Shown: one piece after another, positions 37,201 to 46,200 of the stretch
How the letters are laid out: each line of letters begins with the position of its first letter
Position numbering within the stretch: position 1 is the first letter of the stretch
NCBI RefSeq assembly: GCF_013167455.1
Contig: NZ_CP038328.1
DNA length: 64,000 nucleotides
Direction: 5' to 3' (one strand)
Source of the DNA: Escherichia coli O157:H7
Lineage (GTDB): Bacteria > Pseudomonadota > Gammaproteobacteria > Enterobacterales > Enterobacteriaceae
Made by a program: the position numbers

Positions 37201-40200
37201 GACCGGTTTCGGTGAAGATGTATGCATTGATGAGAATGGCCTCATCCACAGCGGCGTCTGAGGTCATCTGGTCGTACTCGTTTCCCGGGTGACGGAACAT
37301 CAGTTCAGGGTGACACTCATCAGCCGGACATACGGGCCAAAACTGTCCTTACGGCGTTCTGCAAACACGGCAAGAACGCCGGGAATATCCTGCACTTCAC
37401 GACCAGTATACGCTTCAGCACTGCCGTGCCAGCGATACTTACCGGTACAGAACGGAAAAAGACGGGATGCAGGATGCTGTTGGTGAATACGCATGGCTTC
37501 ACCACGGGTGATGATTCTCATGATGTGATACCTCTGAAGACAGAAGATAAAAGTGAAAACAGGTGTGATGTGGTTGTGACGGGTTAAAGCAGACCATGTT
37601 CGGCAAAGGAGAAAACCTGGTTGCCACCGACTATCAGATGGTCCGGCACCCGGATATCCACCAGGCCCAGTGCCTGTACCAGACGTTCGGTGATAAGCCG
37701 GTCTGCCTTACTGGGTGTGACTTCACCGGACGGGTGATTGTGCGCCAGCACCACGGCAGCGGCATTGTGGTACAGGGCGCGTTTAATCACTTCCCGGGGA
37801 TGAACTTCCGTACGGTTGATGGTGCCGGTGAAGAGGGTTTCACCGGCAATCAGCTGATTCTGGTTGTTCAGATACAGCACCCGGAACTCTTCCCGCTCCA
37901 GTCCCGCCATGTTCAGAATCAGCCATTCCCGTGCCGCACGGGTGGAGGTGAAGGCCACGCCGGGTTCATGAAGATGGCGGTCCAGGGTTTGCAGGGCCCG
38001 CAGAATGAGACTGCGCTCGCCGGGCGTCATCTCTCCGGGCAGAAAGGAAAGCTGCTGCATTGTCCCTGCCTCCATTCAGTCAATGATGCGCATAATGGCG
38101 CTGCATTCCGGATGCTGCAGGGCGTAATCCCGCAGCCGGTAATAGTGGACCGTCATGGCATAACACTCCGTACGACAGGCATGATGACTGTACGTCATCA
38201 GACAGGCAGCAATACCGGCGGCTTCCGGGCTCATTTCAGCGCGGTTGCCGTTCATGGCATTGAACAGTACCCATGTTTCGTCATCATCGTCATCCGGTTC
38301 GGGTGCCATAAATGCCCCGCCGTTGTTCAGGGTGTACAGATTCCAGATACCACCGCAGTAGTCTTCGCAAAGACGGTCCATCCAGCCGAAGACACGGGGC
38401 TCCAGGGTCACCCACTGTGGAATGAGGCCAAAATGCTGCGGCCAGAAGCTGATGCGCTGTTCATCAGGGACGGGAGTGGCAACCAGCTGAGGTGGGTTAT
38501 TCCCTGATGCAGTGGTTACGGAAACAGAAGGTGTGGTGGAATTATGCGAAACGGTTGTCATGAGGTTATTCCTTATAAAAAGTAAATGAATGGAAGAAGC
38601 CCCGGGGCAGGAACAGATGTGAGTCAGGACTGCACTTTCAGTGAAACGGCATCAGCGCATGCTCTCCAGCAGCGTTTCTGCCATCACCCACAATGCGCGA
38701 TTGAGCTTAATGTCGGTATCAATGCTGTGAATGGCCCGGGTATGGATACGTTTTCCTTTTGCACTGCGACCGGAAATCCCGCCTTTCAGCATATTCTCCT
38801 GGATGGTCTGATAAGCACTCCACAGGTCCTTACCGTAATCCTCCCGGCGTCGTGGTGTCAGAATGTCGGCGGTGGTGACGGGCTGATGTTCGTCACCATA
38901 ACGGTAAGTCAGTGCCGCCTGTGCCAGCGCCTGGCGTGCCGGTGGCGGCAGGACCAGCGACTGCATGGCATCACGCTTCTCCTCTATCCGGTCAAAAACG
39001 CCCACCACCTCGTAAGCCCCTTCAATGACTCTGTCCACCACATTTCCCCGGTGTGGAACACGCAATTCTCCCAGAGACTGACCGCAGACCAGTCCATTGG
39101 TACAAATGGCACGAAAATATCCGGGTAACATCTGGTAGCTGGATGAACCGTCATGGGAGTTGAGCAGAATAATTTCAGGGACATGCTGACCGGTTATCTG
39201 TCCGGCCCGCCGCAGACGCAGCATGTGTTTTGTGTATTCCCGGCGGCTCTGGTCGCGCACGCGGGTCTGGCAGGCAAAGAACGGCTGAAAGCCTTCCTGC
39301 TGCAGATTTTCCAGGACGGTGATAGTGGGAATGTACGCATAGTGTTCACTGCGAGAGGTATGTCGGTTTTCCCCAAAAATACTCGGTACATGGCGCATCA
39401 GTTCTTCGTGTGTCAGCGGACGATCACGACGTATCTGGTTCGCATAACCAAAACGACTGGCTAATCTCATGATTTGCTCCTTATGAATGATTAAGCGATA
39501 TAAATGAAAAAGCCGCGTCTCCCGGAGAAGACGCGGCCTGATGGGTGAAATGAATGAGGTTTATTGTCTGAGAAGCCCTTCACTGGCGAACCACGTATTA
39601 AGCTGTATTCCGGCATCGCCAGTGCAACTGACCTTCAGCATTGCGGATAACCCGCCGGAAATATGTTCACTGGTTGTTTTTGTATCTTCCCCCAAAATTA
39701 AATAAATTCATCTTAACCATCACCCAGATAATATATATCTGAAAATATTTTCAATAACACCAGACAGGAAAAACACCACCACAGGCGGTGGCGTTTCTTT
39801 GGGGCGTCTTTATTTAATCCGGGCCATCGCGTTTCTCAGTGCCAAATCTGCCTCTTCCGTTATATCCAGGCTTTTCTGCAATACCGCCTCTGACCGGGTC
39901 AGTGCCTGACGTGCTGCCAGCGGTTTCCGGATATGCTCCATCGCCAGCATCGTGTCTTCATAGCCCTGCTGACGCCAGGCGTCGGTATGTGCCGATGTAA
40001 AACTGAGCAGACCGCCGCTGTTGCCACCATCACCTGCATATTTCAGCCTTTTCCGGGGACGGATCTCAAGGATTGTGGTGTCCGGAAAAGCCTGGCGATC
40101 CCATAAAGAACCGTCACTCAGATGCGTCACAATCACCATATTGCATCCGGCATCGACCAGAGGCGTCACAGGGGTATTTCCCTGCATATTTCGCCATCCT

Positions 40201-43200: not shown

Positions 43201-46200
43201 CAGCATTGCTGGCACCTTCTGGCGTACGGCATCCGCACCATCACCATTGCGATCTTTTTCATCGAATTTATTGACCAGCACAAACAGACGACCGGCTGAG
43301 ACGTCAGCAATGGCATTAAGCTCTTTACGAACCTCCTCATCGGCTTTCGAGTTCATCTGGGTGTAATCCATCACCGCCAGCACCGCAGAGGCTTTCTGTA
43401 GTTGATCCCGCATCATCATTTCCATCTGTGGTTGTCCGGCTTCATTAGGGCCGGGGGTATCCAGCAGTGTGAGTGTTCCCTGACATGCATCCATTCCCAC
43501 CAGGTGGCTGAACGCCACGTCGATCACCGGTAGTTTCTGCACTTCTGCGTATTCGTCAAAAGGAAATTCAGTCCCCATTGCCGCAGCAAGACGAACCAGG
43601 TCATTTAACGATGCCAGTCCGGTAAAGATTTCGTCTTCCCCGTGGTATTCATTTTTAAGCCAGACATCATCCGCCAGAATATCCAGTAGTTCGCGGGTAT
43701 CCCCGGTTTGCTGCAGGGACTGTGCGACTTGCTGCCCTGCCGGGGTGGCGAGTTTTTCCTGCAGTGTGATTAATAAATTGCGGACGGGCTGAATATGTTC
43801 CAGATGGAGGACCGGTTCCGTTTTTCCGGGAACGTGGCGGATCAATGTCGGTACCGAGGTCATGGGGCGGTTACGGTTGGGCAGAATTTCCTGCCCCACA
43901 ATGGCGTTGATGGTGGTTGATTTGCCCGCCTTCATCGTGCCGACCACAGCCAGCACCATCTCCCTGCGGGCGGTTTTGATTTGTTCGCCCTCCAGCTCCT
44001 CAATTCTTTTCAGCGCTTTCCGTTTATCAAAAAGCAGCCCGTTTTCGTTCTTACTGTCAGATAACACATCCGGCTCATCAACCATTTGCCGGAGCAGATT
44101 GATATTCAGTTGCAAAAGCCGGTCGGCTTCATCACAAAGCAGGGCGATGTTCTTTTCGTGCATCATTCACCTTTATAAATTCAATAATTCAGAACTGCGG
44201 TGAACAGCAATGAGCGTCCTTTCCCATTACTGCATGAATTTTCCTGAAATCGTATTTCCGGGATACCGTATAATCAGAAAGTCATATTCAGCGTAGCCTG
44301 ACCGTTATAGCCTTCAGCGCTGCTGCCGCTGACGCTGTGGGCATAACCGGCCTGAACGCCCAGGGTGATATTTTCCCGGATACGGGCTTCCAGTCCGGCC
44401 TGCAGGTCCAGTGACGTGCCATTCCGGGACGGTGAGAACGTCATGTTACTGCCGGCTGCGGCTGTCCCCATGCTCATGTCACCCCGGGAGCTGAAGGTGC
44501 GGATAACAGAAGGCTGTACCCACCAGTTCACCGGCAGTTCACTCACACTGTGTTTTGCACTGTCGCGCAGGGTGTCACGGGATGAGGTGCCTTCACCAAA
44601 GGTCATATCGTTGTGGCTGCCCAGACGGAAACCGGCACGCACATGTTGTGCACTGCCATGCCCGAACTTCACATAACCGGCGTTATCCTGGCCGTCATCC
44701 AGGGAGAGTCCCTGCCAGGTGTACTGCAGTTGTGGCTCCAGCATCAGATTGTCAGTGATACTGAAGGGCAGACCGGTTTCCAGTGAGCCCAGCCAGCCCC
44801 AGCCCCGGGCGCGGAAGTCGTTATTGTCCGATGACGCTTTCATGCTGTGACGGGTTCCCTGGGCCACAATGTCAGCCCACAGGCCGGAGGATGTGTGTAC
44901 CAGATTCAGGTATCCGCCCAGACTGCCGGCATCATCCCGGACCGTGCCGGCGCGGGAACCGTCATCATCCTTAACATCAACGGAAGAATGGCCTGCAGCA
45001 CCATACACCCCTGTCGTCAGAGACATACCGGCAACCTCTGTTCTGAGCAGGTCACCCTCCAGACGGACGAAGCCATAGCTGCCGCTGCTTTCCGGCGTGG
45101 CTCCACGGGCAATACCGCCGTTGTTATCGTGACCGAGATGACCGCCCTGAATGCTGAGACGGACGCTGTTATTTTCACCGTTTACACCGGTCTGATGGCT
45201 GCGGGAGCCTGCCAGAATCCGGTCATAGTCCATTGCCTGTGTCAACATGGATGTATACAGGGGGACTTCAGCACGATAAGCATTTTCACTGCGCAGGTAC
45301 CAGTCTTCATCGCTGTCACGGTTCAGGGTGTAGTTAAAGGCGCCGGCCTGAAGCGGGCGACTCAGGGCAAACGCACCTTCTTCTGTGGTGGCGCCATTCT
45401 GTGCATCCACAACCCGGATACCCTGTCCGGTGGTTGCCACCCCGAGGTTGCTGTTTCCGACATTTGTAAACGCAAGCCAGGTTTTGCCGGTTGCCTGACC
45501 ACCATTAATCACCAGCTGGTCAGAGGCATTGCTGCCATCAAGGCGAACACGCATATTGATGGTGCCGCCCTGGCCGGTGAGGTTCGTGGTGGTCAGTTTA
45601 TGGAACGTTACCGGGGAGTTACTTTTTGCAACAGCACGGCTCAGCGCGGCATTCGGTGTCGTCTGATTATCAAAGCGAATCTCCCCTGCGTTAACAATAT
45701 CGCCGGTACTGACCACATCACCATTCAGTACCATACTGGCGCCTTTACTGAGCTGTGTTCTGCCACTCAGACTTCCCCCGGCAGCCAGCGTCAGTGTTCC
45801 ACGATGTCCGACAGTGGTGTTGCCAGCCTGTCCCCCGGCATTAACCGTAAAGCTGCCGCCATTTTCCAGCAGCAGGCCGCTGGCCTGACCGGATGTGCCA
45901 TCAATACTGAACTTACCGCTGGCATTGGTCCCCTCAACAGTGGCACCACTGTCTGCAATCAGGGCACCACCGGATGTTATGGTGACACTTGTCGCCTTAC
46001 CGCCGGCAGACACTGCCAGGGTACCGCCGTCATCCACTAGGGTATTCTGTGCTGAATGGCTCTCCAGTACATCCAGACGACCGCCGGATTCCAGAACAAC
46101 ACCGTCAGCCTTACCGTTTTCCACCGTGAAATTCCCCAGACGGTTTGTGCCGATGACAGTTGCAGCAGTACTGGTAACCAGTGCACCGCCCGTGTTCTGG

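Follow-up and report, generated by a model that had tools for sequence, protein, structure and literature searches.

A 64,000-nucleotide stretch of the Escherichia coli O157:H7 genome (NCBI RefSeq assembly GCF_013167455.1, contig NZ_CP038328.1; hereafter the window) carries, in a genomic island at the serX tRNA gene, an operon encoding a dynamin-like GTPase, a YjcZ/RdcB-family protein and a patatin-like phospholipase. We found the same triad of genes in bacteria of different phyla, and we are highly confident that the three genes are one functional unit. By analogy with characterized systems, the triad resembles a lipase suicide module of the type used by the cyclic oligonucleotide-based antiphage signalling system (CBASS), fitted with a different sensor that is homologous to the RdcA/RdcB pair of E. 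coli K-12. The reading that we favour, with belief and doubt evenly balanced, is that the triad would be a cytoplasmic phospholipase, gated by a GTPase, that serves in defence of the abortive-infection type.

Conservation of the triad across bacterial phyla

The initial annotation of the window had taken the overlapping genes for a single functional unit, and a co-occurrence survey had been set beforehand as a possible refutation. With a patatin profile, we searched one genome for each GTDB species and then ran phmmer and hmmsearch on six-frame open reading frames (ORFs). The triad was found outside the O157:H7 lineage, and in close loci the patatin gene was usually accompanied by the GTPase gene: the order dynamin–YjcZ–patatin and the common strand were kept in 29 of the 34 close patatin loci, which belong to different species and phyla. 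The exceptions were four Synergistaceae genes that stand alone and a small number of loci that are decayed or truncated. Gammaproteobacterial triads occurred in Escherichia albertii, Pantoea, Budvicia, Serratia, three Pseudomonas, Acinetobacter, Moraxella, Allochromatium, Amphritea, Oceanospirillaceae, Marinospirillum and Methylococcales. Further triads were present in Aquaspirillum (Betaproteobacteria), Tolypothrix and Scytonema (Cyanobacteria), a Pontiellaceae metagenome-assembled genome (Kiritimatiellota), and Cytobacillus and Paenibacillus (Firmicutes), while the more distant patatins of the GTDB scan had no dynamin or YjcZ partners. At independently annotated loci, the yjcZ and patatin genes overlapped in 8 of 8 cases and the dynamin and yjcZ genes in 7 of 8, and yjcZ lay directly downstream of, and overlapping, the dynamin-like gene in the window, in the K-12 pair and in the sampled relatives. 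Pairwise distance matrices of the three proteins from 30 loci were correlated (r 0.83–0.89, Mantel p ≤ 0.001), consistent with inheritance as one module. The single-unit claim thus survived the survey and is strengthened by the shared gene order across phyla and by the neighbourhoods described below.

We then looked at the YjcZ family as a whole, which comprised 469 clusters at E ≤ 1e-3 in 1.84 billion representative proteins. Nearly all full-length YjcZ representatives (114 of 119) were closer to triad-linked YjcZ than to K-12 RdcB. Two very distant representatives, with 25–26% identity to any triad YjcZ compared, were both located in complete Dynamin_N/YjcZ/Patatin triads with 4-bp overlaps, and two core-like representatives belonged to lipase-less pairs, one of them with a yjdM neighbour as in K-12. 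In a midpoint-rooted neighbour-joining YjcZ tree, which carries no support values so that its nesting is only suggestive, the nine core-like tips among 149 were monophyletic, eight nodes deep and sister to the enterobacterial triads. These sequence comparisons suggest that the family generally takes the form of the triad and that the RdcA/RdcB pair is a derived, lipase-less offshoot within Enterobacterales. Because the core clade is nested in triad sequences, the RefSeq product name of the middle protein, 'diguanylate cyclase regulator RdcB family protein', probably misleads as a label for the majority of the family. We also considered effector swapping, in the form of YjcZ-family members with a different third gene or with fused domains, and no alternative effector appeared in the contexts sampled. 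One family member (P0287) was a dynamin–YjcZ deletion fusion, and a metagenomic protein of 532 aa (P0297) had an N-terminal DUF3944 and Ubiq_cyt_C_chap-like region fused to YjcZ, with no clear effector.

Architecture of the operon

The window is 100% identical to its matches in E. coli O157:H7 genomes. ORF calls and the sequence agreed with the initial annotation on three minus-strand genes joined by 4-bp overlaps (Table 1). At the dynamin/yjcZ junction (41779–41782), the GTG start and the TGA stop share GTGA, read as CTGTGACTT; at the yjcZ/patatin junction (40877–40880), ATG and TGA share ATGA, read as GCATGAGT. The length of 795 aa first given for the GTPase stands for the ORF counted from its first ATG. 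The ORF opens with two adjacent ATGs, however, and the RefSeq start is the second (44163), which gives 794 aa; this second ATG also has the better spacing from the Shine–Dalgarno-like element.

A terminator scan of the minus strand gave no terminator-like site inside the operon or in the spacer that separates the dynamin gene from cah, and the hairpin that follows the patatin gene is the likely 3' end of the operon. The cah gene, which is Ag43-like, lies directly upstream of the triad in the window, and read-through from cah into the triad is possible since the spacer holds no terminator; phase-variable cah transcription might thereby run into the triad. A simple consensus scan of the same spacer for a sigma-70 promoter gave none. 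As a copy in strain CFT073 is not preceded by Ag43 or cah, the triad probably has its own promoter.

Table 1. Coordinates of the triad operon and its flanking elements in the window
Feature	Position	Strand	Basis or remark
Dynamin-like GTPase, RdcA/CrfC(YjdA) paralogue	41779..44166	-	ORF, 795 aa from first ATG
YjcZ/RdcB-family partner protein	40877..41782	-	ORF, 301 aa, GTG start overlapping dynamin stop
Patatin-like phospholipase	39810..40880	-	ORF, 356 aa
Terminator-like hairpin and T-run	39774..39790	-	20 bp past patatin stop
Spacer, cah stop to dynamin start	44167..44273	-	sequence, 107 bp
Shine–Dalgarno-like AAGGTG	44173-44168	-	inside cah–dynamin spacer

The GTPase and its YjcZ-family partner

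Pfam Dynamin_N covered residues 72–300 of the GTPase (5e-18), which contains the motifs G1 GTMKAGKST (76–84, with K82), G2 PMT (T103), G3 DTPGPNE (236) and G4 NKFD (299). All four were kept in an alignment of 25 family members, K-12 RdcA included. The GTPase is 33% identical to RdcA over residues 34–795 (E 9e-124), and it scored 566.7 bits against the NCBIfam CrfC model NF007368 (residues 2–794 to model 1–736); as this is about half of the curated cutoff of 1146, we regard it as a paralogue and not as an RdcA/CrfC equivalog. The middle protein had been entered as unknown in the initial annotation, which has to be revised: it matches Pfam YjcZ (PF13990) over the full length of the model (E 3.2e-70, residues 26–296 to model 1–272 of 272) and is 30% identical to K-12 RdcB (E 2e-38). 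The first two triad genes are thus a 30–33%-identical paralogue of the core RdcA(CrfC)/RdcB pair, and the profile searches proposed at the outset assigned the three proteins to the Dynamin_N, YjcZ and patatin families.

The core pair shares with the triad the two-gene core with its 4-bp overlap, full-length homology of both proteins, the Pfam families Dynamin_N and YjcZ, identical G1–G4 motifs, the K82 and T103 positions and the lack of membrane segments. As had been noted from the beginning, no lipase is attached to it: in K-12, proP follows rdcA–rdcB (L082, 5136–8239), whereas the triad has a patatin. The target of RdcA/RdcB, DgcE, is encoded elsewhere, whereas the triad lipase is encoded in cis. 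The core pair is a member of the flagellar regulon in the core genome; the triad, by contrast, is carried on islands or plasmids. RdcA (CrfC) is also a protein that binds the beta-clamp. RdcA binds RdcB, docks on the MASE1 domain of DgcE and activates it (PMC6510439). GTP hydrolysis by RdcA is required, and the nucleotide-free K82A variant is active while T103D is inactive (PMC6510439). Both residues are numbered identically in the triad GTPase and in RdcA, where they were mutated, and the K82A/T103D genetics of RdcA could be applied directly to the triad GTPase.

The initial annotation had also labelled the GTPase as membrane-remodelling, a description for which we see no backing: RdcA, the nearest relative that has been characterized, is a signalling GTPase in soluble form (PMC6510439). 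Hydropathy scans of the three triad proteins showed no segment hydrophobic enough for a transmembrane helix or a signal peptide (maximal Kyte–Doolittle 19-residue windows of 1.16, 0.96 and 1.38), and therefore all three look cytoplasmic. By hydropathy, the GTPase shows no paddle-like or hydrophobic segment for membrane binding, amphipathic binding being outside the reach of such a scan. A sequence search of the PDB found no RdcA/RdcB-family structure, the sole match being the P-loop stretch of the Nostoc bacterial dynamin-like protein (BDLP). The AlphaFold2 (AF2) model of the YjcZ protein shows a long helical hairpin and a confident helical C-domain (165–296), and its comparison with PDB folds gave no informative match.

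Some Acinetobacter loci depart from the standard arrangement. In A. chengduensis (L013, 2891–4522) and A. rudis (L035, 3137–4609), a shorter CrfC-like GTPase ORF of ~544 aa directly precedes the full-length dynamin, YjcZ and patatin genes, with a WYL regulator in front, which constitutes a two-dynamin variant. In Acinetobacter sp. KCTC 92772 (L018, 5828–9092), a 413-aa ORF ahead of YjcZ and patatin lacks a G domain and is not significantly similar to the triad dynamin; an IS982 transposase is located nearby, and the locus is either decayed or a GTPase-less variant.

The patatin-like phospholipase

The lipase carries LSGGGAVGAY (the GGGxxG oxyanion loop, G13–G15), GTSIG (S42) and DGG (D223), and G13–G15, S42 and D223–G224–G225 were invariant among 22 patatin homologues down to 46% identity. 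Ser42 and Asp223 are the predicted catalytic dyad of the patatin type (PF01734). The initial annotation had judged both enzymes competent from their motifs; these are indeed intact, and their conservation across 25 GTPase and 22 patatin homologues puts them beyond chance, with activity itself being predicted from sequence.

In the AF2 model of the lipase, which has a predicted local distance difference test (pLDDT) score of 78, a patatin core is followed by a single 60-residue C-terminal helix (296–355). The top Foldseek matches were PlpD (1e-11), the CBASS lipases CapV/CapE (1e-8 to 1e-7) and VipD (1e-6); patatin and cPLA2 were matched as well, all of these at probability 1.00, and ExoU was also among the related folds. 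Sequence-profile comparison agreed with the fold matches. The end of the helix (~326–355) is amphipathic. The solo Synergistaceae patatins end at about query residue 323 and do not have this tail, and for this reason we regard the tail as the leading candidate for a docking element specific to the triad. We had considered these Synergistaceae genes, which match strongly, as counter-examples to the triad and rejected them as such, for they form a solo, tail-less sister clade among housekeeping genes, outside the triad clade.

Genomic neighbourhoods, mobility and expression

The idea that the island follows the logic of defence was extended beyond E. coli by a sample of 16 distinct non-E. coli contexts. 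Known or candidate defence genes lay within ~8 kb in 9 of the 16, which is a raw count and not a genome-wide enrichment statistic. The Amphritea atlantica locus (L022, 1077–15720) is a textbook defence island, with a complete Zorya II system (ZorA2/ZorB2/ZorE2) directly upstream of the triad and a 2162-aa DruE-like helicase directly downstream. Vibrio vulnificus has BrxL and PglZ of the bacteriophage exclusion (BREX) system and a WYL regulator directly upstream; in P. matsuisoli the triad lies between a WYL gene, directly upstream, and a type I restriction enzyme, directly downstream; and Acinetobacter has a WYL gene directly upstream together with a GajB-like helicase. SIR2, a BrxR-type WYL protein and an ADP-ribosylglycohydrolase accompany the triad in P. 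fluorescens, on an island that also holds a YeeP-like GTPase, an integrase, RadC and DUF932, while a metagenomic contig has McrBC, WYL and PDDEXK genes. The remaining cases were Allochromatium (PDC-S17 and a PDC-S04/SoFic-like gene), Pantoea (BrxC) and Cytobacillus (AbiD). A search with a hidden Markov model built from five WYL regulators showed that 9 of 37 triad loci are flanked by a WYL gene; in four distinct triad loci this gene was positioned ≤72 bp upstream on the same strand.

The triad is horizontally mobile on islands and plasmids. Of 5426 complete E. coli genomes, 2442 (~45%) contained it at a coverage of ≥80%, in up to five places per genome; CFT073 and Nissle 1917 are among the carriers. 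In both E. coli and Pseudomonas it resides on CP4-like islands that also hold an integrase, RadC and DUF932, and a 62.5%-identical variant resides on ~25 genuine plasmids of Klebsiella, Enterobacter and E. coli. One CFT073 copy, the one with no Ag43 before it, fills the CP4-44 slot beside tmaR, yeeA and sbmC; in the same island of K-12, the slot between flu and yeeS holds yeeR. We asked if yeeR (L002, 8780–10312, in the same slot after flu) is a dynamin remnant, and rejected this, as BLASTP gave no similarity. CP4-like islands seem to have a site for variable cargo in this slot, with the YeeP/Ag43 genes on one side and the DUF932/antirestriction genes on the other. Phage carriage was not found, either in IMG/VR viral contigs searched with the YjcZ profile or in 50,697 GenBank phage records searched by tblastn.

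Expression data come from E. coli MP1, whose triad-bearing islands also hold EcoKI and Druantia (PMC12922286). In Kapi1 lysogens of this strain, a five-gene cluster that includes one triad copy was among the most up-regulated (PMC12922286).

Proposed mechanism

The anatomy of the triad is well supported: a cytoplasmic set of proteins, co-translated stoichiometrically, of which the lipase is intact in its catalytic motifs. In the mechanism that we propose, the RdcA-type GTPase and the YjcZ-type partner would hold the cis-encoded lipase inactive. A trigger, of which phage infection or another invading element is the likeliest, would change the nucleotide or oligomeric state of the GTPase, and the lipase would be released or assembled. 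The freed lipase would hydrolyse the cell's own inner-membrane phospholipids, leading to growth stop or death, and the amphipathic C-terminal helix of triad-linked patatins would be the candidate docking element. We propose gating of the lipase by the GTPase and YjcZ protein because the nucleotide state of RdcA decides its docking on, and activation of, DgcE. Thus we infer by analogy that the three proteins interact physically, that GTP state gates the lipase, that the target is the self membrane and that the phenotype is defence. The specific GTP-gating step is tentative, and we would sooner expect it to need replacing than to stand. CapV and CapE, the nearest solved lipases among the listed fold entries, become active when they assemble into filaments, and dynamins polymerise; both observations are compatible with assembly-driven activation.

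Comparison with known systems suggests an effector of known type under a new sensor, namely a dynamin-superfamily GTPase with YjcZ. CBASS operons with CapV/CapE likewise have a cytoplasmic patatin as candidate suicide effector, a place in defence islands and frequent WYL regulators. In contrast to them, the triad has no CD-NTase (cGAS/DncV-like nucleotidyltransferase) cyclase and no cyclic-nucleotide signalling gene, its sensor would be the dynamin-like GTPase plus the YjcZ protein, and its lipase carries the distinct 60-residue C-terminal helix, unlike the CBASS lipases. There was no cyclase in or next to the operon, and the lipase scored 22.5 bits with the CBASS_lipase model NF041079 against a cutoff of 200, so the triad is not CBASS. 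Eleos (formerly 'Dynamins', LeoA plus LeoBC) and Bacillus DynA likewise involve a dynamin-superfamily GTPase in defence islands; here the partners are YjcZ and patatin instead, and no membrane-binding segment was found. With no match to LeoA and only a marginal one to LeoBC (23 bits, E 9e-6, 0 stretches passing), the triad is not Eleos either. VipD is activated by Rab5 binding. The Legionella VipD–Rab5 complex (PDB 4kyi) is a precedent for a GTPase-gated patatin, since a patatin phospholipase is switched on there by binding a GTPase; however, VipD is secreted, its activator is a host small GTPase, its C-terminal domain is unrelated, and the similarity to the triad lipase is at the fold level only (E 1e-6, template modelling score ~0.4).

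The initial annotation knew of no characterized system of this composition. This stands as far as characterization goes: PADLOC-DB 2.0 (2023) has no model for the triad, and the searchable literature, with the newest DefenseFinder models and subscription-only papers outside its scope, contains no functional study of it. The triad was not unnoticed, however, as a 2026 transcriptome paper already called it a 'putative dynamin phage defense system' (PMC12922286), and genomics and transcriptomics papers of 2026 list the triad genes and state that their authors found no known link between a phospholipase and a bacterial dynamin.

Several observations weigh against a defence module. No recognized defence gene was seen among the neighbours scanned, which were an ORF subset only, in 7 of the 16 contexts; contexts listed without defence genes are Pectobacterium, Plesiomonas, Paenibacillus, Tolypothrix, Scytonema, two Moraxella, P. 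gingeri and an IncFIA plasmid (annotation only). The link to defence is guilt by association, and it could reflect mere residence on mobile islands. The PADLOC matches are weak and generic (LeoBC 9e-6, CBASS phospholipase 6e-6), and those to phospholipase effectors span only the N-terminal 65 residues of the patatin. The up-regulation in MP1 was affected, according to its authors, by multi-mapping reads for one of the two copies (PMC12922286), and where the triad follows flu or cah without a terminator, the phase state of Ag43 could mimic regulation. A system so prevalent in E. coli is absent from the searchable published defence screens, and the only characterized homologues act in cyclic di-GMP (c-di-GMP) signalling, not in defence.

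If the defence reading is true, an unrecognized immune system would be present, often in multiple copies, in ~45% of the E. coli sequenced so far, among them O157:H7, CFT073 and the probiotic strain Nissle 1917, and bacteria of at least five phyla would carry the same one. GTPase gating would then be a third mode of control for patatin suicide effectors, beside cyclic nucleotides (CBASS) and host cofactors (ExoU, VipD). A further step, to which we give less credence than to its denial, is that the triad is a widespread immune system and RdcA/RdcB its domesticated descendant, having lost the effector and been rewired to a diguanylate cyclase; RdcA/RdcB, with their 'moonlighting' between replication and c-di-GMP, would then exemplify a defence module domesticated into core signalling.

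Alternative explanations

Besides a GTPase-gated defence lipase, we considered membrane maintenance or repair, in which the dynamin-like protein and the lipase would remodel or reseal the inner membrane as Bacillus DynA and mycobacterial IniA do; lysophospholipid would aid curvature or fusion, and any phage protection would arise from delayed lysis rather than suicide. The Dynamin_N G domain fits this explanation, work cited in PMC12922286 ties bacterial dynamins to membrane stress and to protection from phages at the level of the population, and in established lipid biophysics the products of such lipases would be expected to alter membrane curvature. However, the GTPase belongs to the RdcA/CrfC branch, whose characterized member is a soluble protein that signals by docking onto another protein (PMC6510439); by hydropathy, the three proteins show no hydrophobic or paddle-like segment, the BDLP match being restricted to the P-loop; and a patchy distribution on islands and plasmids ill suits a housekeeping role. 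We consider repair unlikely.

The triad might instead be directed not at phages but at the stability of its own island or at conflict between elements, as an addiction-like or anti-plasmid/anti-conjugation device whose lipase kills cells that lose or gain elements. Its absence from phage genomes and viral contigs agrees with this, as do the E. coli copies, always within CP4-like integrative islands beside CbtA/CbeA toxin–antitoxin and antirestriction genes, and the copies on IncF-type and other plasmids beside ccdAB. Yet there is no small labile antitoxin-like partner, all three proteins being large and conserved, and in other phyla the neighbours are typically anti-phage (BREX, Zorya, Druantia and restriction–modification), with WYL regulators of the BrxR/CapW kind upstream. 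Such a role seems distinctly unlikely to us.

It is very improbable that the triad is an accessory c-di-GMP or biofilm regulator, in which the island paralogues of RdcA/B modulate DgcE or another cyclase and the lipase is a side activity. Full-length homology to RdcA and RdcB, the regulators of DgcE (PMC6510439), speaks for it, and the island of the window adjoins the csg curli locus, whose expression is DgcE-controlled; the proximity to csg is a coincidence of the serX insertion site. Identity is only 30–33%, though, with half of the equivalog cutoff score, the triads of Firmicutes, cyanobacteria and Kiritimatiellota always include the lipase, and the patatin-less clade (9 of 149 tips) is nested in triad sequences, so DgcE regulation looks derived.

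Least probable of all is a host-directed or inter-bacterial phospholipase toxin of the ExoU, VipD or type VI secretion system (T6SS) Tle type with the GTPase pair as chaperone or activator, for despite the occurrence on pathogenicity islands of the pathogens O157:H7 and CFT073, a fold related to ExoU and to the GTPase-activated VipD (Rab5, PDB 4kyi), and T6SS Hcp/VgrG genes 5 kb from the Plesiomonas triad, the conserved unit has no signal peptide, secretion-system or immunity gene, is present in free-living phototrophs, cyanobacteria, soil Firmicutes and the commensal Nissle 1917, and neighbours a T6SS in only 1 of 16 contexts.

Other features of the window

The island setting given in the initial annotation, at serX beside antirestriction and toxin–antitoxin genes, agrees with the gene annotation. 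A tRNA-Ser(GGA) gene (serX, 34481–34568) precedes the island genes, which follow in the order DUF4942, DUF957, CbtA/YeeU toxin–antitoxin, DUF987, RadC-JAB, antirestriction, DUF932, triad, cah and YeeP-like GTPase. Upstream of cah, Rfam identified an IS102/IsrC small RNA (sRNA; 47142–47377, minus strand), which mirrors isrC–flu of K-12 CP4-44. The YeeP-like GTPase (47495–48367, minus strand) matched PADLOC LeoBC weakly (4e-8), and an IbrA-like 3'-phosphoadenosine 5'-phosphosulfate (PAPS) reductase (52239–53471, minus strand) matched BrxP weakly (9e-8); both matches probably reflect generic domain similarity. A 722-aa 'AAA domain' protein encoded at 53972–56652 (minus strand) matched the helicase part of Mokosh MkoA (PADLOC 5.5e-44), MkoC and PDC-S37. 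Its gene overlaps a 171-aa ORF without matches, and the two may be a separate defence-type pair in the same island. The core-genome part of the window has ordinary Rfam features on the plus strand, namely a PyrC leader (9472–9521) and the sRNAs ES036 (18652–18694) and ES056 (28790–28881).

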